DNA from: an uncultured Phycisphaerales bacterium
Lineage (GTDB): Bacteria > Planctomycetota > Phycisphaerae > Tepidisphaerales > Tepidisphaeraceae
Length of the DNA: 64,000 nucleotides
Reading direction: 5' to 3'
NCBI GenBank assembly: GCA_963758525.1
Contig: CAVWVQ010000003.1
Span: 4,512,001 to 4,576,000, forward strand
The translations under genes were made by a program, and so were the position numbers. The notes beneath the pieces are model-generated. The model ran no database searches and was not told the origin of the DNA. It saw only the letters and a program-made list of their open reading frames with translations. Below are positions 11,774-50,153 of the stretch, piece after piece; the first letter of the stretch is position 1, and the number at the start of each line of letters is the position of its first letter.

Positions 11774-12677
11774 ATGGCATCAAAGTATTATTCATGGGGC
11801 GAAGCCCAAATCCATTACCGCCAAAGCGGCCTGGGCGATCCGATCCTGCTGGTGCACGGCTTATATCCTGGCGCCAGCAGCGAAGAATTCGACCACAACA
11901 TTCGCGCTGAGCCGGGATTTCAGGGTGTATGCCATCGATCTTCTGGGCTTTGGAATGAGCGACGCGCCGCAGATCCGGTATCGGGCGAAGTTGTATCCGC
12001 TGTTGCTGGGCGACTTCATCCGAGACGTGATCGGTGAACCCGCCGGCGTCGTCACGGCCGGAGAGAGCGGTCCGTTTCTGGCCGCACTGGCGGCGGAGGA
12101 ACCCGACCTGGTATCGAAGTTGGTGTTCATTTCGCCGCAACACTCCCGCTCGACCTTCGGCCGAGCCGGATGGCTCTGGGAAATGGGCCGCGAGCTGGTG
12201 CGTATGCTGCTATTGTTTCCTCCGCTGCACCTGCTTTTTCAGGAAGTGATGGCCGGGGAATGGGAGATCGGGGAAATGTTGCGCCGCTCGTTCCGCGAGA
12301 AGCGAGTGATTGCGCAAGGCCAGGTTGTGCGCTTGAGCGAATTGGCTCGCATGCCTGGGGTGCTCGATGCATATGCGAGCCTTCAAGTCGGCCTCTTGTC
12401 GATGCCATTTGATCCAACGCTGGCGCGGATTGCGGCGCAGACTCTCTTTATCTGCGGCACGTGCGTGGCCCCTGAGACCGCCGAAGACGTTGAATACCTT
12501 TGCCGCCTTGCGCCGAACGGCCGGTTGGAATGGGTCGAACATGCCGCCGAGTGGGTTCACTACGAAATGGCGAGCCGCGCCAATCGTCTGATCGCCAGCT
12601 TTCTGGGAAACGCGCAGGCGTGCGATGTCGGGTCCGACCAGGAAATTTCCGGTCGGTCGGTGCTTGCGGTGGCGTGA
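11774..12677 (+). CDS. Alpha/beta hydrolase-fold protein, frameshift ~11905
   Basis: GDPILLVHGLYPGASSEEF then VYAIDLLGFGMSD; C-terminal HYE. Confidence 0.8.
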
Positions 12678-12682
12678 TGAAC

Positions 12683-12825
12683 GGGTGTAACTTTTATTTG
12701 TGGCGATTGCAGATTTTGCGATCGTAGGGCGGGATTCATCCCGCCGTTTTCTCAGCCGGCCAACAAATCGGCGGGATGAATCCCGCCCTACTCGGAGCCG
12801 ATCGCCACTTTCGAGCGCCACACCC
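12683..12825 (+). mobile_element. 143-bp MITE carrying a GTAG-type REP doublet, 8-bp TSD tgatgaac
   Basis: GGGTGT...ACACCC ends; tgatgaac at 12675-12682 and 12826-12833; identical inverted copy at 49839-49981. Confidence 0.92.
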
Positions 12826-12883
12826 TGATGAACAGACGCGGTCAAACTTGCTTGTCGGGTCCGCGGCGACTAGCTATTGTTAG

Positions 12884-13087
12884 ATGATGAGTACGTTAGC
12901 TGAGATTGAAGCCGCCGCGGAGGCGCTGCCAGCGGAGCAGAAGCAGGAATTGCTCCTATTTTTAGCCGAACGACTCCGGGTATCGGGTGGCCCACGCCCC
13001 GAGCCACGGAAATTTTCCGGCGAACTCATTGCCTCCTGGATTCGCGAGGACGAAGCTGAGATGCTGCGCTTTCGCGAGGGGAAGTGA
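12884..13087 (+). CDS. Small putative antitoxin
   Basis: STLAEIEAAAEALPAEQKQELL; stop overlaps the PIN gene start. Confidence 0.75.
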   Translation: MMSTLAEIEAAAEALPAEQKQELLLFLAERLRVSGGPRPEPRKFSGELIASWIREDEAEMLRFREGK

Positions 13088-13502
13088 AGATCTTCCTGGA
13101 TACCAGCGTTTGCTTTCCGCCTGCGGTTCCGCCAGCGGCGCTTCCCGAGAACTTTTTCGCAGGGCTTCGTCAAACGGGTGGATTCTGATGGTGACACCCT
13201 ACGCGTTTGAGGAAGTACGAAGGAATCGACCTGGCCTTCCACCCTGTGCTACCGGTGAGTGGGAAGCTCTTCAGGAGCAGTTATCCCTTGTGCCCGACGT
13301 ATTCACGGTCGACCGGCCAGTAATCTTCGAGCCGGGAAAAGACCGACCGATTCTGTTCAGTGCCCTCGCCTGGGCAGACGTTCTGGTCACGCTCGATCAA
13401 GCCGATTTCGGCGGTCTGATGGACAAGCCGTTCTACGGGCTTCGTGTTGTACGCCCCGGCACTTTTCTCGAAACGGAGCGATCCGCCGGAAGATTGGCAT
13501 AA
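13084..13502 (+). CDS. PIN-domain toxin, frameshift ~13110
   Basis: MKIFLDTSV, then LSACGSASGASRELF...KDRPILFSALAWADVLVTLD. Confidence 0.8.
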
Positions 13503-13527
13503 TCGTTTCAAGATACCCCCCGACACG

Positions 13528-14079
13528 TTATTTCAACAACGCATCCACCATCAGCCGCCATCCCGGCACGGCGGGTTCGGCGTCGGCGATTTCGCCAGTG
13601 CGATAGATGACAGGAACATCTGGCCGGTCCGGCGTGTATTTGCGGATCAAGTCATGGCCCAGCAAGTCCACATCCCAGACCACGCGCGTACCTGCGGCAA
13701 AATAGTCTCGGATCTTTTCCGCGATTTCGCGCTCGGCAAGCGGACCGTAATCCCCTTCGCTTCGCACTTCAACGGCGAAGGCTGGCGCGCCGCTGAGGAA
13801 ACTCATATCGATCGTGGGTCCCGTGTACCAGGCCGCATCCGGGCTGAAAGACTGTCTGTTGGGAAGATTAACGAGGAACCCCGCATTATCAGGCAGCGCG
13901 AAGCCGCCGCCATGCTCCTCTTCGTGCCGAAGCAGGCTGGCGTAAATCTTGCCACCCGCGCGTGCCGGGCGGCCTCCGGTTGGACTCATGAGCTTCACCT
14001 TTCCGTCAACCAATTCGGCTTTGCCGTGACCCGGCACACGACGTAATTCTTCCACGCCTGCGGCTTGTTTCAATTTCAT
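13528..14079 (-). CDS. Uma2 (DUF820) family PD-(D/E)XK endonuclease-like protein
   Basis: ELVDGK..MSP; SPDAAW; AFAVEVRS; KIRDYFAAGTRVVWDVD. Confidence 0.9.
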   Translation of the reverse strand: MKLKQAAGVEELRRVPGHGKAELVDGKVKLMSPTGGRPARAGGKIYASLLRHEEEHGGGFALPDNAGFLVNLPNRQSFSPDAAWYTGPTIDMSFLSGAPAFAVEVRSEGDYGPLAEREIAEKIRDYFAAGTRVVWDVDLLGHDLIRKYTPDRPDVPVIYRTGEIADAEPAVPGWRLMVDALLK

Positions 14080-14143
14080 GGGAAACCTCAGTCACGTGGT
14101 CGATCCATACATCGTAACGCCGGCGGCAACGTCAGCGACATCT

Positions 14144-15316
14144 TTAGCGAGCAGGCAGCGGCGCGTCCTTCGAACCTCCAACTGGATACCCCCGCCATAC
14201 ATACTCCAGCGCCTCCGGCAAGATCTGTTGTTTCATGCTCCCATCGCAGTGCCCCGCGTTGCGCACGAATACGAACTGGTAATGGTATCCCTTGGCGGCC
14301 AGCGCTTTGGCCATGTTCTCGTTGGCGAGCACCCAGTCATGCATGTTGTCGCGCATGATATTCGGATTCAGTAGATCTCTGTCGCCCACTTCCATCCAGA
14401 TGCGCAGCGGCTTGGCCGGGCTGTCTGGGATCAGGTGCTCATGCAGTTCCCATGCGCCATGGGGCGCCGCCGGATTGCTTGGCCATTGCTGATTCACATA
14501 CGTGCCGGAAAAGGTGAGAACGCGGTGGTAGAGATCGGGGTGATACCAAGCCATGATCATCGCACACGAGCCGCCGGAACTGCATCCCATCGTCGCCCGG
14601 CCTTCGGGATCTTTGGTGAGCTTTACATTGCACTGGCGCTCCACGAGCGGCAGCACCTCTGTCTCGACAAACTCGGCGTATGTGCCGGACATGGTGTCAT
14701 ATTCCAGCCCGCGTTCGCTCCCCTGGGCATCTCCGCTGCCGTTGCCGATGGAGATCGCGATCATCACCGGGACGCGGTGCGCGGCGATGAGATTATCCAG
14801 AGCCGTGAAGAGATTATGGTCGGGCCCATCTGCTCCCACGATGAAAGGCGCGGTTGTGCCGGCGGCATATTGTTTGGGGACGTAGACAGCCACTTTGCGC
14901 GTATATGGCGCTGGATGGCTGCTGCTCACCAACAGCTTGTCCGGGTCGGCTGGATCAACCGTGCCAAAAGTATTCGGTTCGCGCGCGATCCCAGGATAAA
15001 TCTTGCTGTCGGCCGACTTCATGGTGAAGTTAACCACAGTCCCTTGCGGCACGCCCGCCTGCGCACTCATTTCCGGCGCGCGTGCGTGAGTCGGGCCGAT
15101 GATGAAATTTCCGTCCGCGTCCGCCGGCGGAAGAGTGCCGTCGGGCAGTTCCTTGGCCGTCACAAACCCTGGCACGTTCGGATCGCGCGTGGGCGGCGTC
15201 GGCCGCGCCCGGCGTGTGGCCGCCGGGCGAGTTTGCGGCGCATCCGCCGCAATTGCGGGGCATGTGCAAAGGAGCAGACCCACCAACAACGCAATTCTCA
15301 AAATTTTCAAATTCAT
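14144..15316 (-). CDS. Secreted esterase (enterochelin esterase-like)
   Basis: Signal peptide; VYVPKQY; ERGLEYD; GCSSGG nucleophile motif; AGHCD. Confidence 0.85.
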   Translation of the reverse strand: MNLKILRIALLVGLLLCTCPAIAADAPQTRPAATRRARPTPPTRDPNVPGFVTAKELPDGTLPPADADGNFIIGPTHARAPEMSAQAGVPQGTVVNFTMKSADSKIYPGIAREPNTFGTVDPADPDKLLVSSSHPAPYTRKVAVYVPKQYAAGTTAPFIVGADGPDHNLFTALDNLIAAHRVPVMIAISIGNGSGDAQGSERGLEYDTMSGTYAEFVETEVLPLVERQCNVKLTKDPEGRATMGCSSGGSCAMIMAWYHPDLYHRVLTFSGTYVNQQWPSNPAAPHGAWELHEHLIPDSPAKPLRIWMEVGDRDLLNPNIMRDNMHDWVLANENMAKALAAKGYHYQFVFVRNAGHCDGSMKQQILPEALEYVWRGYPVGGSKDAPLPAR

Positions 15317-15539
15317 AGGTATACAGAAAGGGGACCGTGTATCGATCGACTGATGGCTTTCGCCTTGTTCGCTTCAGCGGGCCGTCCGAATTGGCGGGCA
15401 TCATTTCTCCCGCGGGAACTTTCAAACTCGGTACGGACGCCGCGTAAACGATTATTCTTGATCGCGCGGGCGATATCAAATGTCGCGCGATCCCGGTGGT
15501 TGTGGGGCGTGCTCAATCGGATGACAACCGCGCATCCCC

Positions 15540-15630
15540 AAAGCCAACGGATTGCCATCCGTTGCGAATTTTCCGGGAGCGGAGAAACACACGGAAAGCG
15601 GGGACCGACGGATGGCAATCCGTTGGCTTT
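15540..15630. repeat. REP-like inverted doublet
   Basis: 23-bp arms aaagccaacggattgccatccgt / acggatggcaatccgttggcttt, each internally palindromic. Confidence 0.8.
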
Positions 15631-15729
15631 CAATGGAAAACCTCGACGCCGTCGAACCCCCGCGCGTTCATTTGCCGGGTCGCATATCATTCGTCCGACC
15701 ATGAGCCGAGCAGTTGGCAACGCACCAAT

Positions 15730-17598
15730 ATGATGAAGCCCGAGAACAACTTCACAGCCCTCTGGAATCTGGCCTGCGGGCATCGCCGGCGATTCTTGCT
15801 GGCGATGATCGCGATGTTCTGCGGCGTGGCGATGCTGTACGTAACCCCGCTCGTTACCCGCGCCACGATCGATGGCGTGATCACAACGCATCCAACTGCC
15901 GGCATATCCCCCGCGGCAAGCTTTCTGGCTCATCGCAAGCAGCAGTGGGGAACCGAACTGACGCTCTGGCTGGCGGCGGCCGCGGTGGCGGTTGTGACGG
16001 CTTCCGCGGCGGTCTGCATGAACCTGCAGGGCAGACTCTCCGGAATCGCGAGCGAAACAATCGCCCGGCAACTTCGCGATCGGCTCGCGGCGCATCTGCA
16101 GCAGGTGCCAATGTCCTGGCATGACAAGGTGGCGACCGGCGACATCGTGCAGCGCTGCACGAGCGATGTTGACACGGTTCGGCTGTTTTATCGCGAGCAG
16201 GTCATCGAAATCGCCCGAACCTCCTGGCGCATCGCGATCGGATTTCCGATTCTCCTGTGGCTGGATTGGAGGATGGCGCTGTGTGCGACGGCGCTGATGC
16301 CGGTGATCGTCGGGTTTGCGATCGTCTTTTTCAGGAAAGTCCATGGATCGTTCAGAAAAACGGAGGAGGCCGAGGGCGTCATGACCGCGGCGCTGCAGGA
16401 AAACCTGACTGGCGTACGGGTTGTGCGCGCCTTTGCGCGCCAGGATTTCGAGATCGAGCGGTTCACGAAGAAGAACGCGGCGTATCGCGACAGGCACTGG
16501 CATCTTTTCAAAATCCTGGCCGTGTACTGGTCGACGTCCGACCTCCTGTGCATATGTCAGTTTGCGGCGGTCGTCTTTGTCGGCGCATGGCGCGCGTCAA
16601 AAGGAACGATGACGATCGGCACGATGATCGCCTTCGTCTCCTATGCGCAGATGTTCATCTGGCCCATCAGGGAAGTGGGGAGGGTGCTGACAGAATTGGG
16701 AAAGACCCTGGTCGCGATCACGCGAATCAAGGAGGTGCTCGACGTTCCTGAGGAAACGTCCCCAGGGCATCCTATTGCCGAGCCCGCTCGGGTTCGCGGC
16801 CGGATCGAACTTTCGCACGTCAGCTTCCACTACGGCGACAAACAGGTGCTCACCGACGTTTCATTGTCCATTCCCGCTGGAAAAACATTGGCACTCATCG
16901 GCCCGTCCGGCTCTGGAAAGACTACGCTCGTGAACCTGCTGCTTCGGCTGTACGACTACGATACCGGCACCATCACGCTTGACGGCATCGAGCTCCAATC
17001 GCTCGACCGCAAGTATGTGCGAAGCCAGTTCGGGGTCGTGCTGCAGGAGCCGTTCCTCTATTCCAAAACGCTGCGGGAGAACATCAAGCTTGGGCGGCAC
17101 TGGGCGCTCGACGAGGAGATGATCCTGGCGGCGCGAACGGCGGCAATTCACGAATCGATCGAATCGTTCGATGCCAGGTACGACACGCTGATCGGCGAGC
17201 GCGGCGTCACCCTCTCGGGCGGCCAGCGGCAACGGGCGGCGATCGCACGCGCACTGCTGAAGGACGCGCCGATTGTCATTCTCGATGACGCGCTGAGCGC
17301 GGTGGACATGAACACCGAACGTTCCATCCTCAATCAACTGCGCCGCCGAAGTCGAAATACCACGACGATCATCATCGCCCACCGGCTTTCGACACTCATG
17401 CACGCCGACCGGATCGCGGTCATGGAAAAAGGACGCATCATTCAACTGGGGACGCACGATGAGCTTGTCGCGCAGGAAGGGCTCTATCGCCGGCTCTGGC
17501 AGATTCAGGGGGTTCTCGCGGAAGACCTGCGTCTGGAAATGGCGGCCGACACCAACGGCACGGCAACGGAGCCAGCAGCGATGGAGCAAGTCCAATGA
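15730..17598 (+). CDS. ABC exporter, fused permease/ATPase subunit A
   Basis: TM domain; GPSGSGKT; LSGGQRQR; LDDALSAVD. Confidence 0.93.
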   Translation: MMKPENNFTALWNLACGHRRRFLLAMIAMFCGVAMLYVTPLVTRATIDGVITTHPTAGISPAASFLAHRKQQWGTELTLWLAAAAVAVVTASAAVCMNLQGRLSGIASETIARQLRDRLAAHLQQVPMSWHDKVATGDIVQRCTSDVDTVRLFYREQVIEIARTSWRIAIGFPILLWLDWRMALCATALMPVIVGFAIVFFRKVHGSFRKTEEAEGVMTAALQENLTGVRVVRAFARQDFEIERFTKKNAAYRDRHWHLFKILAVYWSTSDLLCICQFAAVVFVGAWRASKGTMTIGTMIAFVSYAQMFIWPIREVGRVLTELGKTLVAITRIKEVLDVPEETSPGHPIAEPARVRGRIELSHVSFHYGDKQVLTDVSLSIPAGKTLALIGPSGSGKTTLVNLLLRLYDYDTGTITLDGIELQSLDRKYVRSQFGVVLQEPFLYSKTLRENIKLGRHWALDEEMILAARTAAIHESIESFDARYDTLIGERGVTLSGGQRQRAAIARALLKDAPIVILDDALSAVDMNTERSILNQLRRRSRNTTTIIIAHRLSTLMHADRIAVMEKGRIIQLGTHDELVAQEGLYRRLWQIQGVLAEDLRLEMAADTNGTATEPAAMEQVQ

Positions 17599-19457
17599 GC
17601 GCTCCCGCCATGGAAGACGATGTGTTCACGGGCAAAATGGATTTTGCCCTGTGGCGGAAGATCCTGAAGTTCGCGCTCCCGCATAAGGGGAAAATTCTTG
17701 CCGTCATGACGGCAGGAGCAGTGGTCTCCTGCTTCGATATTTGCCTGCCGTTCCTCACCGGCCGGATCGTGGACGCGGTCATGGCTCACGGCACCGCGAC
17801 CGTGCTGCGCGGCTACATGTGGGCGTATGCCCTGGTCATCGCGGGATTTTGCACCTGCATACTCAGTTTCATCGCCCTTGCGGGACGCATCACCGTCAGC
17901 ATCAGCTACGACGTTCGGCAGACCTGTTTCGATAAACTGCAGCGACTCCCGTTTGCGTATTACGATCGCAAAGCCGTCGGCTGGCTCGTGGCTCGGATGA
18001 CCAGCGACTGCTCAAATCTGTCACGCGTGATGGCGTGGTCGCTGCTCGACTTGACATGGGGATCCTGCACGCTGATCGGCATTACGCTGTTGATGTTTTC
18101 GCTGGCGTGGCGTCTGGCGCTGGTGGTGATCACGATCGGTCCGATTCTCATTGCCATCAGCAGGTACTACCAGGTTCGGCTCCTCAAGACTTCGCGGGCG
18201 CTGCGCAAGGCCAACTCGCAAACCACCGCCGCGTTCAATGAGGGCATCGTCGGCGTGAAAACCAGCAAATCGATGGTGCGCGAAGAGCGAAATGCCGAGG
18301 AATTCGCGCATCTCACGGAGACCATGTACGGCCACGCGGTGCGCAATGCGCTATATGCGTCCATGTTCTGGCCGATGATGCTCTCGGTCTGCGGGGTCGG
18401 CATCGCGCTGGCGCTGCGCTTCGGCGGCCTCGGCGTGATTCACGGACAGATGACGCTGGGCGCGCTGGCGACATTTCTGCAAATCGTTTTTTTCATCCAG
18501 TTTCCCGTGCAGGAACTCACCAACGCCATTACGCAGATTCAGGGCGCCCAGGCGTCGGCCGAGCGCGTGCAGGGCCTGCTCGACGCTGAAGTTGAAATCG
18601 AGGACTCGCCGTTGGTCATCGAGAAAATTCGCAAGCATGGCGCCAGCCCGCGCGCAAAGACCGCTGATCCGCACACTGCGATTGACGGGATGGATTCAAG
18701 AGTGCATTCCATCGAATTTCGCAATGTGGGCTTCTCCTATCGGGGGGGCCAAACGGTCTTGAGCGATTTCAATCTGCGCGTTCGGGCCGGCGAATCAATT
18801 GCCATCGTCGGCCCGACCGGGGGCGGCAAGACAACAATCGTCGGATTGGCCTGCCGATTTTATGAGCCAGCTTCAGGACAGATCCTGATCAACGGAATCG
18901 ATTACCGCGATCGTTCCTTGAAATGGCTTCAGTCGAACCTTGGCATGGTCTTGCAGCAGCCGTATCTGTTCAGCGGGACGGTGAAGGAAAACATTCGCTA
19001 CGGACGGCTCGGCGCAACCGATGAGGAAATTGTGCAGGCCGCGAAACTGACCGAAGCTCACGACTTCATCAAGCTGATGAAGGACGGCTACAACGCTGCC
19101 GTCGGCGAGGGGGGCAATCAGCTCTCAACCGGGCAAAAGCAGTTGATCGCACTCGCCCGGGCAATCATTGCCAACCCGCAGATTTTCGTCATGGACGAAG
19201 CGACCAGCTCGGTTGACACCCACACGGAACGCGCGATCCAGGCAGCAATCGATCGAATTCTGAAAAACCGAATCAGCTTCGTCATTGCCCACCGGCTTTC
19301 AACGATTAAGTCCGCCAGCCGCATCCTGGTTGTCGAGGCTGGCCGCATCATCGAAGATGGAAATCATCATTCACTGATCCGCCAGCGCGGGCATTATTGC
19401 GAGCTTTATACGAATCAGTTCACCCACGAGCGGGAGGAAGCGGTGCTTGGCGGGTAG
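17595..19457 (+). CDS. ABC exporter, fused permease/ATPase subunit B
   Basis: GPTGGGKT; LSTGQKQL; MDEATSSVD; 4-bp overlap with subunit A. Confidence 0.93.
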   Translation: MSAPAMEDDVFTGKMDFALWRKILKFALPHKGKILAVMTAGAVVSCFDICLPFLTGRIVDAVMAHGTATVLRGYMWAYALVIAGFCTCILSFIALAGRITVSISYDVRQTCFDKLQRLPFAYYDRKAVGWLVARMTSDCSNLSRVMAWSLLDLTWGSCTLIGITLLMFSLAWRLALVVITIGPILIAISRYYQVRLLKTSRALRKANSQTTAAFNEGIVGVKTSKSMVREERNAEEFAHLTETMYGHAVRNALYASMFWPMMLSVCGVGIALALRFGGLGVIHGQMTLGALATFLQIVFFIQFPVQELTNAITQIQGAQASAERVQGLLDAEVEIEDSPLVIEKIRKHGASPRAKTADPHTAIDGMDSRVHSIEFRNVGFSYRGGQTVLSDFNLRVRAGESIAIVGPTGGGKTTIVGLACRFYEPASGQILINGIDYRDRSLKWLQSNLGMVLQQPYLFSGTVKENIRYGRLGATDEEIVQAAKLTEAHDFIKLMKDGYNAAVGEGGNQLSTGQKQLIALARAIIANPQIFVMDEATSSVDTHTERAIQAAIDRILKNRISFVIAHRLSTIKSASRILVVEAGRIIEDGNHHSLIRQRGHYCELYTNQFTHEREEAVLGG

Positions 19458-19477
19458 TATACGGCGAAGGAAACCCA

Positions 19478-20323
19478 ATGAATAAATCGATTGTCGGAGG
19501 ACGTTCGGTCGCGGCGCGTGCTCCCTATGAGTCGGGAATGATCGAGGCGCTCGAGAGCCGCCGGCTGCTATCGGTGTCGCCTGTCACTCACCTCGCGCCG
19601 TCGGCGTTGGCTGCGGCGATTACCCTCAAGCCCGCAACGCCGGCGAAGATTCTTGCGGGCAGAACCGGCTTTGAAACCGTCACGATCCGTAACTCCAGCG
19701 CCGCCAGCGAAACCCAGGACATCAGCATCACGCTCGCTCCGTCGCTGGACGGGACGACCGCAGCGGGAAGCTACAGCACGCCGGGGGTTACCGAGACACT
19801 GACCATCAAGGCGCACGGCAGCGCGACGGTCAAGGTTCCATTCATCCCGCCGGCCACGCTGGCCGCCGGCAGGTACCGCACGCTGGCGTACGTGCAAGTC
19901 GGTTTCAGCACCACACTCGCCACCGCGCCCGGCGCTTACACCCTGGTTCTCCCGCCCGGCTCCACCACCACGCCGAGCCTCATCGGGCATTACGCTGGCT
20001 TGATCCTCGCCACCAGCAGCACCGGCGGCGCCCATGGCACGCACTCGGCCGGATTCGGTTGGGAAACCACCGATCAAACGGACAGCACCCTGACCGGCCT
20101 CTTCGCCGTCGGGTCGGGTCAAGCCGCCGGCGTCATGACCGGCGCGGAACTGACCACTGGCGTCATTCAGTTCACGTTCACTTCCGATGACATCACCTAC
20201 ACCATCAAGGGCAAAGTCACCCCCGACGGCTCAAGAATATCCGGCACCTTCAAGGGCGTACTGCTGAACAACATTTTCAAGAAGCTCAACGGCAACTTCA
20301 GATTGAGCCGCCAGGCTTCGTAG
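19478..20323 (+). CDS. Planctomycete extracellular protein (LEPR-XLL-like motif)
   Basis: IEALESRRLLS near the N-terminus; Thr/Gly-rich beta-strand body. Confidence 0.75.
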   Translation: MNKSIVGGRSVAARAPYESGMIEALESRRLLSVSPVTHLAPSALAAAITLKPATPAKILAGRTGFETVTIRNSSAASETQDISITLAPSLDGTTAAGSYSTPGVTETLTIKAHGSATVKVPFIPPATLAAGRYRTLAYVQVGFSTTLATAPGAYTLVLPPGSTTTPSLIGHYAGLILATSSTGGAHGTHSAGFGWETTDQTDSTLTGLFAVGSGQAAGVMTGAELTTGVIQFTFTSDDITYTIKGKVTPDGSRISGTFKGVLLNNIFKKLNGNFRLSRQAS

Positions 20324-20502
20324 AATGGGAAGGGGCGAAGCGCGCGGCCACCAGATGTTGCGGAAGACCGCTCATGCTTCCTCCCGCGTAGCCGCGACGT
20401 TGCTCGCGGTTTCCCGAGCAGGCCATCACCTGCGGCTTCTCGCTGCTTCAGGGCCGCCGCCTTCCTCCGCCTTCCTGCGCGTTCCAGCTGCCGCGTTCCA
20501 GC

Positions 20503-41535: not shown

Positions 41536-42210
41536 TTACGTGCAGCCTGCGAGCGAGGTCACGCTCGCGGCGGTCGCGCCGATCTTCGCAAACCGGATCA
41601 GCGAAAAATGCCCCAGTGGCGGCAGCGGCGTGTGCTCGATCAGTTTGACGCTCGAATTGCCGGCGGCCCAGATCATGTAGCGAGAGAACGGAAACTCCGT
41701 GCGCCATCCAAGCTTGGTTGTGACCGGCATCAAAGTTTTCTCGATCCCCGCCCGCATGCCGCGGTCGGCGCCGATGCGGGTGGTGATGACGACTTCGCCG
41801 CCGGGTCGCACGACACGCGCAAGCTCGCTGAGCGCTACCTCAGGGTTCGGGCACGCGGTCACGACATACTGTGCGACCGCGACATCAAAACTGTTGTCGG
41901 CAAATCGCAGGTCCTCCGCATCGCCGATCTCCAGGGATTCGACGTTTTCGAGCCTGAGTTTTTTGACCCGTCTGCGCGCGACGTCGAGCATTCGCTCTGA
42001 GATGTCCACTCCCACGATGCTTGTCGTCGCAGCATATCCCGGCAGCGAAAGGCCCGTGCCGACACCGACTTCAAGGATACGCCCGCCGATCCGTTCGGCG
42101 ACGTCAACCGCTGCCGCTCGACCGCGTCGGAAAATTCGGCCGAACACGAAGTCGTAGATCGGCGCCAACCTTCCGTACGCGTTGGCGACTCCGGTGGTAT
42201 TCATCTCCAT
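41536..42210 (-). CDS. pmtA: Phosphatidylethanolamine N-methyltransferase (Rhodobacter PmtA-type)
   Basis: AYGRLAPIYDFVFG; ILEVGVGTGLSL; LGWRTEF. Confidence 0.75.
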   Translation of the reverse strand: MEMNTTGVANAYGRLAPIYDFVFGRIFRRGRAAAVDVAERIGGRILEVGVGTGLSLPGYAATTSIVGVDISERMLDVARRRVKKLRLENVESLEIGDAEDLRFADNSFDVAVAQYVVTACPNPEVALSELARVVRPGGEVVITTRIGADRGMRAGIEKTLMPVTTKLGWRTEFPFSRYMIWAAGNSSVKLIEHTPLPPLGHFSLIRFAKIGATAASVTSLAGCT

Positions 42211-42500
42211 TGTGAGTTGGATCTCCTGAATGAACCTGCGGGAGTACGGGTTCGTGCGAATGTCATGGCTGCCCTGCGGCCGCTGTACGATTCCTGAAAG
42301 CGCTCGTTGCGCAAGGTCATTGGGAGCACCCATTGCGAGCGTGCTCCAACTTATACAGCAACTTCCGCAACAAAATGGGTTGCGCGGAAGGGGTTCGCGG
42401 AGAATTAACGTGCCCCTTGCAAGATCTGAACGGCTCGGCTGCCGAATGGAGATTCGCTGGTGGGCAGCGGTGTGCGATTGCGATCATTTGCACGTGAGAC

Positions 42501-43466
42501 TTACGTGCGCGGCAATCGCATGATCGCTTCTCCGGCCTTGATCGGTCGCCCTTCGCGTACATTCTCCGTCAGGTTGAATCCATCCGGCGTGAAAAGGATG
42601 ATGGTCGAGCCGTGCTCAAACCAGCCCATCTCTTGTCCTTTGACCAACCTGCCGTTGCAGGGAATGTGGTGCGTCCCGCGGCGCGTTGCGGAGCCGCGCC
42701 GTTCGCCGAGAGCTGTTTGACGCTTGCCATCGGCTTTGGCGAGGGTCCGTAAGTGCCGCACGGTGTCGCACAGGTGCAACCGGATGCTGGCGACGAGTAT
42801 CGCCGCCACGGGCACCAGCAATATCGGCTGGCGCGATGGTTCCAGGCTGCAGTGGATCACGGCCCGTTCGTTCTTGCAAAACAACTTTTCCACGCGCTTA
42901 AGTGCGATGGGGTTGACGTTCCAGGTGTCGCCGGACATGTAGGTGACCTTGTCCACGGACAGATCGGCCGGCGCATGGAAGCGGTGATACATGCTCGATG
43001 TCAGCCGCATGGTGATGAAGCGGCCGTGCCGAAACTCGTCGGTGTTCGCCGCGTCGCCGCACAGATCCGCCAGTGTGTAGGGAAAACCTTTGATCTGATA
43101 AACCCGGTCGCCTTCGATGCGGCCGCATGCCCCGACGATCGCATCACACGGCGAGACGAGAATGTCGGGTCGGGGGTCGGAGGGTCGCGCTCCAGGCTTG
43201 AGCGCTCGCGTAAAGCACTCGTGCAGCGAGCGAAAGTTCAGGGTTGCCGCATCCGACAGATCGAGGTCGGTGAACATTTTCCAGGCGGCGATCGAAGTCC
43301 GGCACACGAATGGATTCTCGATTCTGCTGATGCGGCCGACCAATTGAGTCGTCAACCGTCGCGGCAGCCGATTGGTCAGCAGGAAATTGATATCTTCCCG
43401 GGCGACCAGCGTCACCACGCGGGAGCGCACCCATGCTTTGGATTGGGAGAAGAATTTGCGTGTCAC
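42501..43466 (-). CDS. psd: Phosphatidylserine decarboxylase-like proenzyme
   Basis: FTRALKPGARP; VSPCDA; YHRFHAP; KNER; KGQEMGWFEHGSTII (G-S cleavage site). Confidence 0.85.
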   Translation of the reverse strand: MTRKFFSQSKAWVRSRVVTLVAREDINFLLTNRLPRRLTTQLVGRISRIENPFVCRTSIAAWKMFTDLDLSDAATLNFRSLHECFTRALKPGARPSDPRPDILVSPCDAIVGACGRIEGDRVYQIKGFPYTLADLCGDAANTDEFRHGRFITMRLTSSMYHRFHAPADLSVDKVTYMSGDTWNVNPIALKRVEKLFCKNERAVIHCSLEPSRQPILLVPVAAILVASIRLHLCDTVRHLRTLAKADGKRQTALGERRGSATRRGTHHIPCNGRLVKGQEMGWFEHGSTIILFTPDGFNLTENVREGRPIKAGEAIMRLPRT

Positions 43467-43586
43467 TCAATGCTCTCGCGCGATCGCACGTTGCCAGAGG
43501 TCACTTTCAGCCGCTGCCCGCCCGGCAGCCAGGTTGCCACACATGGGCGTACTCGCTCGCGTTTTATCCGGGCATAAGTCAAGAAC

Positions 43587-45245
43587 ATGATCAACCAATA
43601 TTTCACCGTATGGATCTGTGCCGCCGTGCTTGTGACGCTGGGACTGATGCGCGGGTGGCGTCGACTTCAACTCTCTGGCGCGAAGCATCCTGGACTTGTC
43701 GGGCATCCCCGCATGGGACGGCGACTCGCCCGCGCGCTGCCATTTTACGACTTCGATACCGACCGCTTCTTCCGGGTCGATGATCCTCCGGCCCAGATTG
43801 CCCAGCGCCGGCAAGCCGGGTTCGAGTGTCTCGCGACGCTATACCAAACTCGTTTTACCAAGACGGCCGCGCTGACGAAAGAAGTCCGTACGGGACTCTC
43901 AGACCTGCAGTTCACAGCTGCTTACCGCGTGCCTTTTCAATTCAGCCGTGTCGTTCGCGAACGTCTCCCGGTCGGCGCGTTTGCGGAATCGACCTCCGGC
44001 GTGACCGTGACCGATCTGGATGGGAATGTCTTCTATGACGTGAGCGGGTCCTATGGCGTCAACCTTTTCGGGCAGGATTTTTACAAGAGCTGCATTAATG
44101 AAGGCGTCAGGACGGCGGGCCAACTCGGCCCCGTGCTCGGACTTTACCACCCCGTCGTCGCCGACAACGTCGCCAGATTGCGAACGATTTCGGGATTGGA
44201 CGAAATAAGCTTTCACATGTCGGGGACGGAAGCGGTGATGCAGGCGGTGCAACTGGCCCGTTACCATACCGGCCGATCGCACGTGGTCCGATTCGCAGGC
44301 GCCTATCACGGCTGGTGGGGGGACGTGCAGCCGGGGATCGGCAACCCCGTCCCGGCCGACCGCACCTACACCCTTGCCGACATGTCGGACAGAAGTTTGC
44401 GGATCATCGCCAATCGTCGCGACATCGCATGCGTCCTGGTGAATCCGCTCCAGGCGCTGCACCCCAACTCCGCCGCTGTCTCCGATGGCTCTCTGGTGGA
44501 TAGCGGCCGCCGGGCGGCGTTTGACCGTGGCGCTTACACCGTCTGGCTCCAACGACTGGCCGGCGCATGCCGTGAAGCCGGTGTGCCCCTCATCATGGAT
44601 GAAGTGTTCCTCGGCTTTCGCCTGGCGGCCGGTGGCGCCAGTGCGTACTTCGGCGTCTATCCGGACCTGGTGACCTATGGAAAGTCGCTGGGAGGCGGCC
44701 TGCCGGTCGGCGTGCTGTGCGGGCGCGCCGAACTGATGAAGCGCTTCCGTACCGACCGGCCCGCCGATGTGTGTTTCGCCAGGGGCACGTTCAACGCCCA
44801 TCCATATGTGATGGGCGCGATGAACGCTTTTTTGCGGGCGATCGACACGCCGGACATCCGCGCGCTCTACAGCGACCTTGATGCGAAGTGGAACGCTCGC
44901 GCCGCCGCCCTCAACGACCGGCTCGCCGCCGAACGCTTGCCGCCGCGCGTCGCGAACCTCTCCACCATCTGGACGGTCCTCTATGAACTGCCGTCCCGTT
45001 ATAACTGGATGTTCCAGTACTACCTGCGGGCAGAAGGATTGGCGCTGAGTTGGGTCGGCACCGGCAGGATGATTTTCAGCCTCAATTACTCCGACGCAGA
45101 GTTCCAGGCCGTCGCCGATCGTTTCGTCTCCGCCGCCAGGAAGATGCAGGCCGATGGGTGGTGGTGGGCGCCCAACGGACAAACCAACAAGGGAATCCGG
45201 CGGAAAATTCTATTGGAGACGTTGCGGAAGCGATTCGGCAGCTAA
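43587..45245 (+). CDS. Class III PLP aminotransferase (GSA 2,1-aminomutase-like) with N-terminal membrane anchor and extension
   Basis: DLDGN; SGTEAVMQA; AYHGW; DEVFLGFR; TYGKSLGGGLPVG; GTFNAHP. Confidence 0.88.
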   Translation: MINQYFTVWICAAVLVTLGLMRGWRRLQLSGAKHPGLVGHPRMGRRLARALPFYDFDTDRFFRVDDPPAQIAQRRQAGFECLATLYQTRFTKTAALTKEVRTGLSDLQFTAAYRVPFQFSRVVRERLPVGAFAESTSGVTVTDLDGNVFYDVSGSYGVNLFGQDFYKSCINEGVRTAGQLGPVLGLYHPVVADNVARLRTISGLDEISFHMSGTEAVMQAVQLARYHTGRSHVVRFAGAYHGWWGDVQPGIGNPVPADRTYTLADMSDRSLRIIANRRDIACVLVNPLQALHPNSAAVSDGSLVDSGRRAAFDRGAYTVWLQRLAGACREAGVPLIMDEVFLGFRLAAGGASAYFGVYPDLVTYGKSLGGGLPVGVLCGRAELMKRFRTDRPADVCFARGTFNAHPYVMGAMNAFLRAIDTPDIRALYSDLDAKWNARAAALNDRLAAERLPPRVANLSTIWTVLYELPSRYNWMFQYYLRAEGLALSWVGTGRMIFSLNYSDAEFQAVADRFVSAARKMQADGWWWAPNGQTNKGIRRKILLETLRKRFGS

Positions 45246-46283
45246 ATGCAGTTCCCTGTCGTGATGAACCGTCCCGCGAGGCAAACGACGAATCGGTGCC
45301 ATTGATTCGATGACAGTTTTTGCGCATTTTTCCCACGTGCAGGTCCGCGCGTATTCGAGGCAAGCCTGGCTGTCGAGGTTTAGTGCCGCAAGGCACGCGG
45401 CCTGCAGATCGTTGTCGAGAACACCGGTTACATTCTGTTGTACGACATCAATCGGGCCGGTCACCGGATACGCCGCCACGGGAACGCCGCAGGCGTTGGC
45501 TTCGAGCATGGTGATGCCGAAGGTATCGGTGCGGCTGGGGAACACAAACACGTCGGCGGCGGAATAGAGGCGTGCCAGGTCCTGGCCGTACTGATATCCC
45601 GTCCAATGGACCTGCGGGTACTGGCGCTGCAATGCGGCTCGTGCCAGACCGTCCCCGACCACGACTTTGCTGCCGGGCAGCTTTATAGCCAAAAATGCCT
45701 CGATGTTTTTTTCCGGCGCGATACGACTGGCGGTAAGGAAGATCGGTCGCGGCAAAGACAATCCGGTCTTACCGTGCGGCTTGAACACCTGCATATCAGC
45801 CCCGCGACTCCAGATGACGGTGTTGTCAAAGCCATGTGACTGTAGTTCCGTTGCCACCGAGCGTGTGGGGACCAGGGTTCGGGTGGCGGCTCGATGGAAC
45901 CACTTCAAAAGCTTCCAAGTCAGCGCCGCGGGAACGCCATAATAAATGCTGAGGTAGCGGGGGTACTGCGTATGGTAGGAGGTGGTAAAGGGCAGCCTGC
46001 GTTTGGAGCAATAAGCGCGACACGCAAGTCCCAGCGGTCCTTCCGTAGCGACGTGGATTGCCTTCGGTTGGAAAGCATCCAACAGCGATGCCACTTTCGC
46101 CCGAGGGAGCACGGCGAGACGAATTTCCGGGTATTTGGGGGCGGCGACGGTACAAAACAGCCCGGGGTGGATGACCAGAACATCGTAACCCAGCCGCTCC
46201 AGTTGACGAACGACCTCGGTCCAAGTCCGCACCACGCCGTTCACCTGGGGCATCCATGCATCGGTGACAAGAGCGAACTTCAT
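45210..46283 (-). CDS. GT4 glycosyltransferase
   Basis: VTDAWMPQVNGVVRT; HVATEGPLG; FPSRTDTFGITMLEANACG. Confidence 0.92.
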   Translation of the reverse strand: MKFALVTDAWMPQVNGVVRTWTEVVRQLERLGYDVLVIHPGLFCTVAAPKYPEIRLAVLPRAKVASLLDAFQPKAIHVATEGPLGLACRAYCSKRRLPFTTSYHTQYPRYLSIYYGVPAALTWKLLKWFHRAATRTLVPTRSVATELQSHGFDNTVIWSRGADMQVFKPHGKTGLSLPRPIFLTASRIAPEKNIEAFLAIKLPGSKVVVGDGLARAALQRQYPQVHWTGYQYGQDLARLYSAADVFVFPSRTDTFGITMLEANACGVPVAAYPVTGPIDVVQQNVTGVLDNDLQAACLAALNLDSQACLEYARTCTWEKCAKTVIESMAPIRRLPRGTVHHDRELHLAAESLPQRLQ

Positions 46284-46463
46284 CGACCTCCTGCAGCCAT
46301 CGCTAATTGTGGAAAGCAAAGCGTCCGCACGTGGGCGTACTCGCGCACGTGCATCTAGGTCGGTATCATTAAACGACAATTCAAAGGATTTTGATCAGGA
46401 TAGATGAAGGTTCCATAAAACGCGCGTTTTTTTTGAAACTGGAGAATAACGTAGTGCCGCCGC

Positions 46464-46605
46464 TCAACGCCCGGTCATTTGCTCCCAATTTCTCGGGATA
46501 CCGATTCCCCTGCACGGTGATTTCTGCGGCGGCGGCGTCGATGTCGCGCAGGTCGTCGGACGAGAGTTTCACCGATAAGGCTCCCAGGTTCTCGTCGAGG
46601 CGGTG
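46464..46605 (-). pseudogene. Aldo/keto reductase C-terminal remnant
   Basis: HRLDENLGALSVKLSSDDLRDIDAAAAEITVQGNRYPEKL. Confidence 0.75.
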
Positions 46606-46723
46606 CGGAAGTCTTATCAAATTAAAACGCAATTATAGGATGCATCGGTCTCGCGACGGAGAGCGAAATTGATAGCATTCTCGCGACTCGCCGCGATCGC
46701 AGCCAAGAAAGCAGGGACATGAA

Positions 46724-48145
46724 TTGGAAGAAATATCTGTAGCCTCCGCTGGCGGGGTTTCGCCGGCAATCAAGCGGGCGACACTGTTGCCGCTGGTCGC
46801 GATTACTTATTGCATGGTCGCCGGCGGCCCATACGGCTTGGAAGATTTGATCAGTTCGGCGGGGTATCGCAATGCGGTGCTGCTGCTGTTGATCACGCCG
46901 CTGCTGTGGTCCTTTCCGGTGACGTTGATGGTCAGCGAACTGTCGACCGCGATGCCGGAAGACGGCGGCTACTACGTCTGGGTGCGGCGGGCGATGGGGC
47001 CGTTCTGGGGATTTCAGGAAGCGTGGCTTTCGCTTGCCGCCAGCGTTTTTGACATGGCGATCTACCCGACGCTGTTTATCAGCTATCTGGCCCGACTCTG
47101 GCCGGCGGCGGGTGGCGGAACTCTGTCGACATGGATCGGAATTGGTCTGATTGCCGTGTGTGTCGCAATCAACCTGGCGGGAATTCGACTGGTCGGCGCC
47201 GGTTCGCTTGCGATGACCCTGGCGCTGCTGCTGCCGTTCGCGGTGGTGGTCGTGCTGGCGTTGTGCTGTCATCCGCAGGCGGCGGCGGTATCGAACGCGA
47301 CCCCCGCGCCCCCCATGCAGATGAATTGGATCGGCGGCATCCTGGTGGTGATGTGGAATTACATGGGCTGGGACAACGCCTCGACGATCGCAGGGGAGGT
47401 GGATCGCCCCCAGCGAACCTACCCGCTGGCGATGCTGCTGTCGGTGCTTCTGGTGGCGGCGACGTATGTCATCCCCGTGGCGGCGGCCGCGCGGACCGGA
47501 ATCGCGCCGCAGAGTTGGGACACCGGGTCATGGGTGGACGTGGGAAGAACCGTCGGCGCCGGCATCGGCCCGCGGTTGGGCGAGGGTTTGGCGGTTGCGC
47601 TGACGGCGGGCGGGATGATCTCCGCGTTCTCGATGTTCAACGCGCTGATCCTCTCGTATTCGCGCGTGCCCATCGCGATGGCGGCGGACGGTTTTCTGCC
47701 GAAGGTGCTGGGCCTCCGAAGCCGTCGCACCGGCGTTCCCTGGGTGGCGATCCTCGTGTGTGCGGTCGGCTGGGGAATGTGCATGAAACTCGGGTTCGAG
47801 AAGCTGCTGCTGCTCGACACCTTGCTCTATGGGCTGAGCCTTATCCTCGAGTTTGCCGCGCTGATTGCTCTCCGCTTGCGCGAGCCGCGCTTGCCTCGTC
47901 CGTATAAAGTTCCAGGCGGTCTGCTGGGTTGTATCCTCATCAGCCTCGGCCCGATTCCAATCATGTGCGTCGCGTTCTACCAATCCCTCTCCGACGAGGG
48001 GGCACACAAGGGACTGATCGTCTCGGCTGTCACCGTGGTCGCGGGCGTCGTCCTCTATTTCGTCGCGGTCTGGATTAACCCGCGATTGCGAAAGCGGCCT
48101 GAATCACTGGTGCTGACCGAAGCATCAATTTCCGGCACATCGTGA
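46724..48145 (+). CDS. APC family amino acid/polyamine permease
   Basis: VAGGPYGLE; ELSTAMPEDGGYYVWV; WNYMGWDNASTIAGEV; ~12 TM segments. Confidence 0.9.
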   Translation: MEEISVASAGGVSPAIKRATLLPLVAITYCMVAGGPYGLEDLISSAGYRNAVLLLLITPLLWSFPVTLMVSELSTAMPEDGGYYVWVRRAMGPFWGFQEAWLSLAASVFDMAIYPTLFISYLARLWPAAGGGTLSTWIGIGLIAVCVAINLAGIRLVGAGSLAMTLALLLPFAVVVVLALCCHPQAAAVSNATPAPPMQMNWIGGILVVMWNYMGWDNASTIAGEVDRPQRTYPLAMLLSVLLVAATYVIPVAAAARTGIAPQSWDTGSWVDVGRTVGAGIGPRLGEGLAVALTAGGMISAFSMFNALILSYSRVPIAMAADGFLPKVLGLRSRRTGVPWVAILVCAVGWGMCMKLGFEKLLLLDTLLYGLSLILEFAALIALRLREPRLPRPYKVPGGLLGCILISLGPIPIMCVAFYQSLSDEGAHKGLIVSAVTVVAGVVLYFVAVWINPRLRKRPESLVLTEASISGTS

Positions 48146-48148
48146 GCA

Positions 48149-48544
48149 TCACGGCAGGTATTGCTCGTCGGAAACCTTCTCCATCCACTCCACGACTTTG
48201 CCGTCGAGCTTCTCCGCGACGGCGATGTGGGTCATCGCCGTGGTTGGCGCGGCCCCGTGCCAGTGCTTCTCGTTTGGCGCAAACCAGACGATATCGCCCG
48301 GCCGGATCTCTTCGAGCGGGCCGCCTTCGCGCTGTGCGCGGCCGCACCCGGCCGTTACGATCAAGGTCTGCCCGAGCGGGTGCGTGTGCCACGCCGTGCG
48401 CGCGCCTGGCTCGAAGGTCACGATCGCGCCGCTGACCCGTGCCGCGTCGCTTCCCTGAAACGGCGAATCGATCCGAACCGCGCCAGTGAACCAATCTGCC
48501 GGCCCCTTTGCCGACGGCTGAGAGCCATTTCGTTTGATTTCCAT
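48149..48544 (-). CDS. Cupin domain protein
   Basis: [41 protein letters not shown]. Confidence 0.92.
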
Positions 48545-48621
48545 TTGTTTTCTCCTTGAAGGTTCCGCGGATAATACGACGCGTGGACCGGCTCAATTGA
48601 GCCGGCACGCGCGGCAATCGC

Positions 48622-48720
48622 ATGCACAAGGTAACGATCTACACTGACGGCGCCTGCTCGCACAATACGGACGGTGAATTCGCCGCAGTTCTCATTGATC
48701 CGAAGAAAGCGCGCACCCGT
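48622..48720 (+). pseudogene. RNase HI N-terminal fragment, copy 1
   Basis: MHKVTIYTDGACSHN..GEFAAVLI. Confidence 0.7.
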
Positions 48721-48728
48721 GAAGAGGT

Positions 48729-48825
48729 AACACGAATCTGCACGAATCGGGCACGACTCCTCACGAATAAACGCGGACGAATTCTGCTTCGTGAAGACTT
48801 GTGCGAATTCGTGCCGATTCGTGTT
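48729..48825. repeat. CACGAAT tandem/inverted repeat
   Basis: aacacgaatctgcacgaatcgggcacga ... ttgtgcgaattcgtgccgattcgtgtt. Confidence 0.75.
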
Positions 48826-48908
48826 CTGCATTTGTCGGTCACCTCGAACCGGGCGTGGTCTCGCTTGCTATTGCCCATGTTGATTATGTTGATTATATAA
48901 TTAACCGC

Positions 48909-49177
48909 ATGGCTCCACGTTCCGGTGGAATGAGTGGAACACGGACCACATCGCGGCGCACGGCGTGAGCCTGGAGGAAGCAGAGTTCGTGGTAAAGCAT
49001 CCGGCAAGCGGGTTCCCGCGGCGCCAGGGTGATGGCAAGTACCGGGTCTGGGGCCAGAGCGAAGACGGGCGTTATGTGCAGGTCATTTACATCTTCTCTC
49101 CGCCGGGAGTTACTTACGCGATCCACGCCCGTGAACTGGAAGATGATGAAAAGCGGCGGCTTCGCCGAAGGAGTTGA
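48909..49177 (+). CDS. BrnT-like toxin, frameshift near codon 3
   Basis: FRWNEWNTDHIAAHGVSLEEAEFV...GRYVQVIY...IHAREL. Confidence 0.8.
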
Positions 49178-49180
49178 ACC

Positions 49181-49498
49181 ATGGCCAAGCGCACAGCACA
49201 GAAACCGTACGATCAAATGAACGCACAGGAACTGACGACGGCGACAGCCGAGTATGATCGTCCTTGGAGAGGGCGCGGCTTGCCGGGCAAGCCGTTGACC
49301 GCGGCGGACCGCGCCAAGCATCGCCGGGCCGGGCTTGGCGGGCGACCCCGCATCGGCCAGGGCGCGAAGATCGTTCCCGTCAGCATCGAACGCGGCTTGC
49401 TCAAAAAAGTGGATGAATTCGCCAGGCGACACAAGCTGAAGCGGTCACAGATGGTGGTTGAGGGTCTTCGCCTGGTAATGCAGCGGCGGGCGGGCTGA
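49181..49498 (+). CDS. Antitoxin with C-terminal ribbon-helix-helix
   Basis: GRPRIGQGAKIVPVSIERGLLKKVDEFARRHKLKRSQMV. Confidence 0.8.
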   Translation: MAKRTAQKPYDQMNAQELTTATAEYDRPWRGRGLPGKPLTAADRAKHRRAGLGGRPRIGQGAKIVPVSIERGLLKKVDEFARRHKLKRSQMVVEGLRLVMQRRAG

Positions 49499-49552
49499 AA
49501 CGCGGCATCTTTTTTTCGCCTACTGGCCTCCGTTAAACTTTTGTCGCCCTCT

Positions 49553-49662
49553 CTGCTCCACAATCCCGGCGGGGACGGCGCGTTCGCCGCAGTTTTCATT
49601 CATCCGAAGAAAGCGATGTGCATTTCGGGCTACATCCCGGCTCCAACGATCAACAACCAGAC
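49553..49662 (+). pseudogene. RNase HI fragment, copy 2
   Basis: HNPGGDGAFAAVFIHPKKAMCISGYIPAPTINNQ; DNA similar to 48654-48711. Confidence 0.7.
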
Positions 49663-49791
49663 GGGTGTCGGTCTCTCGACATTCTGCATTGCACCGCGGC
49701 GAAGATGCTGGCCTCGCCGGAATTCTTCACAAGCGATGCCCGGCAAAGAAAGCTCGCTGCGGCGATGGGGCTAAACGCTGTCGTATTCTAA
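49663..49791 (+). pseudogene. VapC/PIN C-terminal remnant
   Basis: RSLDILHCTAAKMLASPEFFTSDARQRKLAAAMGL. Confidence 0.7.
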
Positions 49792-49838
49792 CCGATAAAG
49801 TCGAAGTCATTGCCCGACTTCACAAAGGCAATGCCCGC

Positions 49839-49981
49839 GGGTGTGGCGCTCGAAAGTGGCGATCGGCTCCGAGTAGGGCGGGATTCATCCCGCCGATTTG
49901 TTGGCCGGCTGAGAAAACGGCGGGATGAATCCCGCCCTACGATCGCAAAATCTGCAATCGCCACAAATAAAAGTTACACCC
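49839..49981 (-). mobile_element. 143-bp MITE with REP doublet, 8-bp TSD atgcccgc
   Basis: Exact reverse complement of 12683-12825; atgcccgc at 49831-49838 and 49982-49989. Confidence 0.92.
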
Positions 49982-50153
49982 ATGCCCGCACCGGCCGGTG
50001 CATACCAGTCCTGTCGATTACGACTCCGTTTTGAATGCGCAGGCGCTCCAGAAAAGCTCCTGCGTTTTTTGGCACATCTCGCGGTAGGATGACCCAGCGT
50101 GTAACGCCGGCGCACCATCTCCGGCATGCCGAGAAAACATATGGAGGAAGCCC

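Follow-up and report, generated by a model that had tools for sequence, protein, structure and literature searches.

A GTAG-type REP doublet between ISKra4-like ends: a probable promoter-directed MITE in an uncultured Tepidisphaeraceae bacterium

[quoted passage not shown] Under this interpretation, two ends of about 26 bp from an ISKra4-like insertion sequence (IS), a group with Mutator-type DDE transposases, surround an inverted doublet of a host repetitive extragenic palindrome (REP) of the GTAG type, and the cognate transposase is likely to have mobilised the whole upstream of predicted promoters. We assign it a probability of roughly 85%.

An earlier note on this DNA had described two identical 143-bp copies in inverted orientation, each within a different 8-bp target site duplication (TSD), and this proved exact. 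The two copies are exact reverse complements over all 143 nt, copy 1 being bracketed by tgatgaac and copy 2 by atgcccgc. The element is short and non-coding, with imperfect terminal inverted repeats. Its ends are bipartite, as had also been described (GGGTGT, then 11 unpaired nt, then GTGGCGAT; fold z -7.5), and its core is indeed a 68-bp GTAG REP inverted doublet, in which each REP unit is a terminator-like hairpin followed by a T-rich tail, one per strand. The features are listed below in window positions; IRL and IRR denote the inverted repeats at the left and right ends of the parent IS.

12675-12682, plus strand: left 8-bp TSD of copy 1, beginning with the stop codon (three bases) of the open reading frame (ORF) 11457-12677, which has an Abhydrolase_6 match
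12683-12825, plus strand: MITE copy 1, 143 bp
12683-12708, plus strand: IRR-derived end of copy 1, agreeing with the right end of the parent IS at 23-24 of 26 nt
12724-12791, unstranded: GTAG-type REP inverted doublet of copy 1, 68 bp, two hairpins
12800-12825, plus strand: IRL-derived end of copy 1, equal to the parent IS left end at 19-20 of 26 nt, on the side of the predicted promoter
12826-12833, plus strand: right 8-bp TSD of copy 1
12852-12880, plus strand: predicted sigma70-like promoter, weak; -35-like box at +27, 17-nt spacer, -10-like box at +50 from the IRL tip
12884-13502, plus strand: 67-codon ORF (no family match), then a PIN_3-like gene split by an assembly frameshift; target locus, outside the element
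49785-49790, minus strand: -10-like hexamer of copy 2, at +49 from the IRL tip; its -35 box is weak
49831-49838, plus strand: 8-bp TSD on the IRL side of copy 2
49839-49981, minus strand: MITE copy 2, with the same sequence as copy 1; its IRL-derived end spans 49839-49864 and its IRR-derived end spans 49956-49981
49873-49940, unstranded: REP doublet of copy 2
49982-49989, plus strand: 8-bp TSD on the IRR side of copy 2

We counted copies and TSDs across the genome, as the earlier note had proposed. A fuzzy search allowing up to 4 edits revealed 69 full-length copies, of which 45 are identical, 22 carry one change and 2 carry two (26 differences over 9867 nt). Exact TSDs flank 53 of them (40 of 8 bp and 13 of 9 bp), 64 of the 69 have TSDs with at most two mismatches, and no conserved target sequence was found among the TSDs of the 69 copies. 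A de novo scan of 4162 end pairs, in which 0.12 TSDs would be expected by chance, returned 53 elements: 49 known copies, a 101-nt collapsed single-hairpin derivative that bears a TSD, and three IS copies. There are also 25 older matches with 81-95% identity, 4 of them with a TSD at no more than one mismatch; set beside the 69 near-identical copies, they indicate a recent burst on top of an older family. The whole element was not found in the 40 relatives searched, two of which gave partial matches.

Recent movement, which the earlier note had suggested, was supported by contigs from three public runs of one study. In two of the runs the unchanged element is joined to a flank outside the 69 sites. 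Both of these flanks are single-copy and element-free in G000, and both runs also carry 151-263-nt pieces of the adjacent unique DNA with 0-2 differences. Because these sites are occupied in the public-run contigs and empty in G000, the element has moved recently.

To trace the shell of the element, we searched 60 relatives for the pattern of its asymmetric ends. These ends are present in other genera, in one case directly 3' of a transposase fragment. With this fragment as the query (best 80 of 241 loci used), complete ISs of 1430-1432 bp with 8-9-bp TSDs were found among the retrieved loci, in Tepidisphaeraceae and Phycisphaerales records. The left end of the MITE agrees with the parent IRR at 23-24 of 26 nt, and the right end agrees with the parent IRL at 19-20 of 26 nt in four of five copies and at 13 of 26 in one with a 2-nt deletion. 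The similarity ends at the inner edge of each end, and the interior has no match to the parent IS. These matches bear out the earlier proposal of a REP doublet in a DDE-type shell, while the family named then did not hold: the shell is not IS1595-like, and IS256 was rejected as its source because G000 has no PF00872 match. The autonomous IS with matching ends that the note had called for is complete in relatives and is missing from the G000 assembly. A lone end-like match at C3:4336050 was rejected as a source, having no IS behind it.

In all three of the parents translated, the IS consists of two ORFs that overlap at an A7G run, with a -1 shift from frame 1 to frame 0. NF033572 (ISKra4) is the clear best NCBIfam model for the second ORF, NF033529 reaching only 52.5 bits. 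Candidate residues of what we take to be the DDE triad and the DxxH motif were picked out by eye in the parent translation. The parent inverted repeats lie within 18-39 bp and end in C, and its direct repeats are 8-9 bp, as in the p-MULT 4 ISs discussed below. A tree of 35 proteins, with parsing errors in several tip labels and a root at which long branches join, placed all 11 sampled transposases with these ends in one clade (100/100), far from the enzymes resident in G000, and the inner end motif tracks the transposase clade.

The target sites were then examined on a gene map from our own crude gene caller (5729 genes, 81% coding). The results revealed that 67 of the 69 rebuilt target sites are intergenic, compared with about 20% of 3000 random positions, and that the next gene beyond the IRL points away from the element at 58 of 69 sites (33 of 69 on the IRR side). 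Flank profiles contain, on the IRL side only, TTG at +27/+28 (28/69) and TA...T at +49 to +51 (40/69). A promoter score, defined as a weighted sigma70-like consensus of at least 12 with the -35 box at +26 to +29 from the IRL tip, is reached by 50 of the 69 flanks on the IRL side and by 2 of the 69 on the IRR side; at random intergenic positions the figure is 118 of 3000, and the nine other 4-nt windows gave 1-8 of 69. Since the window was chosen post hoc, independent sets matter. The rule holds for the cognate IS at 17 of 27 IRL flanks vs 6 of 55 IRR flanks, and for MITEs of other genomes at 21 of 36 vs 2 of 36, and both polymorphic sites obey it. The parent IS thus shares the polarity of the MITE, with its IRL toward the predicted promoter. 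Tandem footprints occur at 6 of 69 target sites and 99 of 3000 random positions, a weak signal.

The REP doublet also exists in the host apart from the shell. Its 22-nt unit has 404 matches in G000 at up to 4 mismatches, 266 of them outside young copies, where 89 doublets were found, 21 with shell-like flanks and 68 shell-less. The 68 shell-less doublets differ in their spacers (65 variants), and no 8-9-bp duplication flanks any of them. Elsewhere, the exact unit occurred in 1 of 400 other genomes of the phylum, as two free doublets, and no ORF resembling a REP-associated tyrosine transposase (RAYT) was evident by eye between them. The cargo has the anatomy of GTAG REPs and REPINs (REP doublets forming hairpins): a GTAG tag with a short palindrome, arranged as an inverted doublet and present in multiple extragenic copies. 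In G000 the search for a RAYT partner was negative: none of the 23 Y1_Tnp matches has a free REP unit within 4.6 kb; one of them lies 674 bp from a MITE copy. The REP is the cargo and not the mobile unit. As a separate observation, a Y1_Tnp (RAYT-like) gene at C3:4371390-4371707 has, on either side, a GTAG palindrome of another kind, with 18 matches in the genome.

A survey found the IRR pattern in 20 of 141 genomes of the family and in 88 metagenome stretches, 80 of which were used. These and the other genome loci were sorted, with loci of the host genome itself excluded and the partner end sought within 300 bp. Of the ends, 60 belong to ISs and 22 are truncated or could not be classified; the MITEs comprise 39 distinct sequences and 15 duplicates. 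The 39 MITE sequences form 18 clusters of 94-196 bp, and 17 of the 18 contain a REP-like repeat, of six unrelated motif types as judged by eye; the repeat of the present element is a seventh type and that of an element in G002 an eighth. Because a shared motif may mean a shared ancestor, independent captures number at least as many as the unrelated types, and not 17. Exact motif counts were compared with IRR-end counts in the same host: 134 vs 18 (G135) and 50 vs 7 (G015) for the CCCTCACCC-type motif, 132 vs 15 (G155) for the GACAAGAATG-type, 404 vs 6 (G111) for the GTCATGCTGAG-type, 137 vs 1 (G085) for the CACGGGTT-type, and 6 vs 3 (G005) for the CACAGCC-type, of which two sister genomes have 44 and 47 motifs. 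Five cargo motifs therefore outnumber the IS end in their host or occur apart from it; the G050-type motif is weak, with 5 of 14 matches away from listed ends. Folding is strong (z -3.5 or better) in 11 of the 18 clusters. A shared terminator or insulator role was rejected as the general reason for the cargo, because only 1 of the 18 other MITE lineages has even one terminator-like tail (28 of 270 shuffles). For the present element such a role would fit, with terminator-like tails on both strands, compared with none of the 68 free doublets. Two further observations concern the shells. Three loci of one metagenome (L248, L263, L288) are MITEs with IRR-type ends at both sides and TSDs retained, and a lone IRL-like end followed by a CCCTCACCC-type repeat at C1:251285 suggests a decayed second MITE family in G000.

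Several points weigh against our interpretation. First, the second ORF of the parent alone scores 185 bits on NF033572 (E 2.5e-54), below the cut-off of 205, and the cognate transposase is absent from the 90.9%-complete G000 assembly, in which the best matches are 20-24% identical. Second, the promoter score is of our own devising, its window and threshold were set after the flank profile had been viewed, and a strict promoter scanner calls no promoter at either window copy. Third, REP-likeness was assigned by eye among related lineages that are not independent, no RAYT gene is tied to the REP of this element, and in 7 of the 18 clusters folding reaches z -2.4 at best, one of them being a lineage in which 7 or more copies bear TSDs; since weakly folding cargo spreads with TSDs, a strong hairpin is not strictly needed. 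Fourth, the polymorphic sites are indirect evidence of mobilisation, and each is represented by one junction in low-depth contigs of a single study, so that no TSD is visible.

If the MITE interpretation is correct, the moving would have been done by a cognate transposase that is unassembled, recently lost or present in sister cells. This enzyme would bind the inner motif and cut at the tip, and transposition may proceed by copy-out/paste-in with a circular intermediate, as the text of PMC3942029 describes for the analogous IS256 and TnGBS. The element would be placed with its left end leading, at about 27 bp upstream of a predicted sigma70 promoter's -35 box, perhaps guided by the bound RNA polymerase holoenzyme, as that text proposes for TnGBS. 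The REP doublet would have been captured with its native flanks between the inner edges of both ends, the origin that we favour, either through REP insertion into the IS followed by trimming or through template switching in gap repair. Inside the shells, non-homologous flanks of 4-30 nt surround each doublet, which fits the capture of native DNA without deciding it.

Selection for palindromic cargo, which as a putative hairpin or cruciform hinge would help ends less than 100 bp apart to pair, is the explanation that we tentatively prefer, and passive carriage of the palindrome is about as likely. The REP may be a neutral passenger, an explanation to which we give a little less than an even chance: mobile doublets would land in IS shells, deletion would trim the rest, and the hairpin would be irrelevant to transposition. 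Consistent with this, the cargo types are unrelated and mirror the abundant repeats of each host, the weakly folding types and the 101-nt single-hairpin derivative carry TSDs as well, and a common repeat lies within 120 nt at 8 of 69 target sites. However, within the 300 bp searched, none of the 18 clusters is an empty shell or contains a convincing transposase remnant (one 14-residue match at 50%), and only 87 of 3000 random intergenic 100-nt windows of G000 contain one of the seven motifs tested, a rough null from an incomplete list.

The burst might instead have been driven in trans by a resident ISKra4-like element. G000 has four ISKra4-like genes: two in copies of a 1498-bp IS, one in a 1466-bp IS and one in a 1437-bp IS; 8-9-bp TSDs flank each of these elements. 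The 1498-bp and 1466-bp ISs have the GGGTGT tip, with a -35-like box near +27/+28. The 1498-bp copies share 99.93% identity, so this IS is recently active, and the cognate gene is the one missing from the assembly. Nevertheless, the ends of the resident elements match the MITE at just 7-17 of 26 nt (13-17 for the 1498-bp and 1466-bp ISs), and the inner motif follows the transposase clade; the residents were rejected as the source of the MITE ends on end identity and tree position. In addition, both 1498-bp copies, like the 1437-bp IS, have the promoter signal at a similar distance on the IRR side, whereas the MITE and its parent set the IRL there, and among the public runs with the element, one contains fragments (82-88% identity, depth 2-5) of a gene of the cognate clade, not assignable to this organism. 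We therefore regard a resident driver as improbable.

Two of the resident ISs have further features of their own. In the 1498-bp IS (C5:72113-73610 and C3:3320260-3321757), a hairpin directly precedes T5C5 at a +1 frame junction. The text of PMC5009743 describes stem-loop-dependent transcriptional slippage in an IS630 element of Roseiflexus; the layout of the junction is the same, but here in a Mutator-type IS. The 1466-bp IS (C3:1464719-1466184) has a T4C5 junction, lacks three codons immediately past the putative catalytic DG relative to the 1498-bp IS, and may be inactive.

It is very improbable that insertion was random and that selection against harmful insertions left the promoter-linked intergenic pattern. 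Purifying selection does remove insertions from genes, and one of the polymorphic sites sits inside a short ORF, but a one-sided window of 3-4 bp is not easily made by selection, and the free REP doublets in the same intergenic space have no such pattern (3 of the 68 fit the promoter rule). It is scarcely credible that an HUH (RAYT) enzyme moved the entire unit as a REPIN, or that the copies are an assembly artefact, despite the GTAG doublet core and the 23 Y1_Tnp matches, given the different 8-9-bp TSDs at 53 sites, the IS-derived ends, the free doublets without TSDs, the lack of any Y1_Tnp gene flanked by free copies of this REP, and the identical element in independent assemblies.

The earlier note had also placed toxin-antitoxin genes of the PIN type next to both copies. 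This is borne out in part: copy 1 is followed by a gene that is PIN_3-like by ESM Atlas (no Pfam or NCBIfam match); near copy 2 there is a BrnT-like ORF (E 2.8e-4, under the cut-off) and a 40-codon fragment that is PIN-like by eye only. Because copy 1 lies at the standard distance from the predicted promoter of the small operon with that gene, the toxin-antitoxin neighbourhood is likely best explained by promoter targeting, and the association is probably incidental. An inverted 37-kb interval between the copies, another earlier suggestion, was not borne out in the assembly, the public-run contigs not covering the window junctions: both copies retain their own TSDs and no flanks are swapped, and none of the 5 TSD-less copies in the genome shares a flank with another copy. 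In the same neighbourhood, the BrnT-like and PIN-like genes (48909-49177 and 13084-13502) each have a frameshift near the start, through decay or assembly error, and an RNase H-like fragment (E 0.0012) at 48622-48900 is partly duplicated at 49573-49615. Other REP-like repeats or palindromes of the window lie at 1295-1365/4164-4234, 4120-4163, 50901-50944, 61542-61583, 15540-15630 and 3300-3407. For the element, an Rfam identity was rejected, with only sub-threshold microRNA hairpin matches.

A 1527-bp IS of the ISNCY family (NF033594, 381 bits) is present at C3:2149724-2151250, 3356228-3357754 and 4237641-4239167 (L361-L363) with 16-18-bp TSDs. In all three copies the duplication directly precedes the TTG of a -35-like hexamer, and two copies share their promoters with a MITE copy that lies 27-28 bp away. 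Judged from these positions, it is a second, unrelated IS with predicted promoter targeting.

Other observations concern the age of the copies. TSD pairs (n=64) diverge at 2.3% of positions, compared with 0.26% for element bodies from their consensus, about 4 times that expected if both had aged equally; gene conversion, selection on the bodies, error-prone gap filling or assembly polishing could account for the excess. Older copies form tandem arrays, and one young copy directly adjoins an old one (C3:3572261-3572970; C3:3640852-3641430; C3:4692663-4692920). Contig C6 (8.2 kb) duplicates C3:52517-60748 at 99.87%, probably because it is redundant in the assembly or represents a strain variant.

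MITEs, REPINs and p-MULT ISs that target promoters are all known already. In plants, the non-autonomous Mutator elements called Pack-MULEs contain host DNA that they have captured, with a preference for the 5' regions of genes; their cargo consists of gene fragments and the elements are much larger, whereas the cargo here is a palindromic repeat of 50-150 bp. The p-MULT 4 ISs (ISKra4, ISMich2 and ISAzba1 groups) are described in the text of PMC3942029 as having Mutator-type DDE transposases, inverted repeats of 18-39 bp ending in C and direct repeats of 8-9 bp. The IS described here resembles them in its probable Mutator-type DDE transposase (best model NF033572), its repeat sizes and its insertion upstream of predicted sigma-A/70 promoters, and it resembles the ISMich2 group in having two ORFs joined by a -1 frameshift. 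Within p-MULT 4, that text ascribes promoter targeting to the ISKra4 group only, with near-symmetric inverted repeats, in both orientations and 13-17 bp from the inverted repeat junction; our IS differs in being frameshifted, with asymmetric ends and an IRL-only orientation, and its -35 box begins at 26-29 bp from the junction, or 18-19 bp beyond an 8-bp TSD. Should the distance given in that text be measured without the duplication, the gap would narrow to about 2-3 bp. In TnGBS/ISLre2 (p-MULT 3), found mainly in Firmicutes, the IRr faces the promoter at 15-17 bp, and the parent IS differs from them in family, as its weak NF033529 match indicates.

Like the REPINs and GTAG REPs described in the texts of PMC3116915 and PMC3733652, the cargo is an inverted doublet of GTAG palindromes, extragenic and multi-copy, with a long hairpin; unlike REPINs, it lies within DDE-type ends and TSDs and is linked to no RAYT. 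The text of Delihas 2011 (PMC3184786) states that MITE signatures are not seen in REPs and describes the opposite relation, in which ISs insert into REPs. The BrickBuilt MITE of Porphyromonas gingivalis (PMC4596501) is likewise a bacterial MITE with a repeat interior and intergenic location (always so in BrickBuilt), but as described there its cargo is one tandem minisatellite in one species, whereas here several unrelated host palindromes occupy one IS shell. The word MITE is absent from the main text of PMC3942029. In the literature covered we found no REP doublet inside IS ends; ISfinder, subscription papers and supplements (including the IS tables of PMC3942029) lay outside this scope and could hold this IS.

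REPs and MITEs have been treated as separate classes with different enzymes. One IS shell with at least 7 unrelated REP-like repeats would constitute a second, RAYT-independent route for the spread of REP doublets, and the role of the palindromic interior of a MITE becomes testable. It is possible, though we consider it unlikely, that this Mutator-type IS lineage of the Tepidisphaerales repeatedly captures a host REP-like palindrome because a putative hairpin is needed to join close ends. If so, HUH-type or immobile repeats would become DDE-driven and be delivered at a constant spacing upstream of sigma70 promoters. This would be a general way for REP families to switch transposition chemistry, and a bacterial counterpart of Pack-MULEs. 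The 69 sites provide a sharp one-sided target map, 26-29 bp from the -35 box, for a frameshifted p-MULT 4 element, a kind for which the main text of PMC3942029 describes no targeting. The system would be a compact one for studying how a transposase may be targeted through RNA polymerase, its ends offer a possible 52-bp gene-avoiding delivery shell, and its insertions form a natural map of predicted promoters for an uncultured lineage of Planctomycetota.

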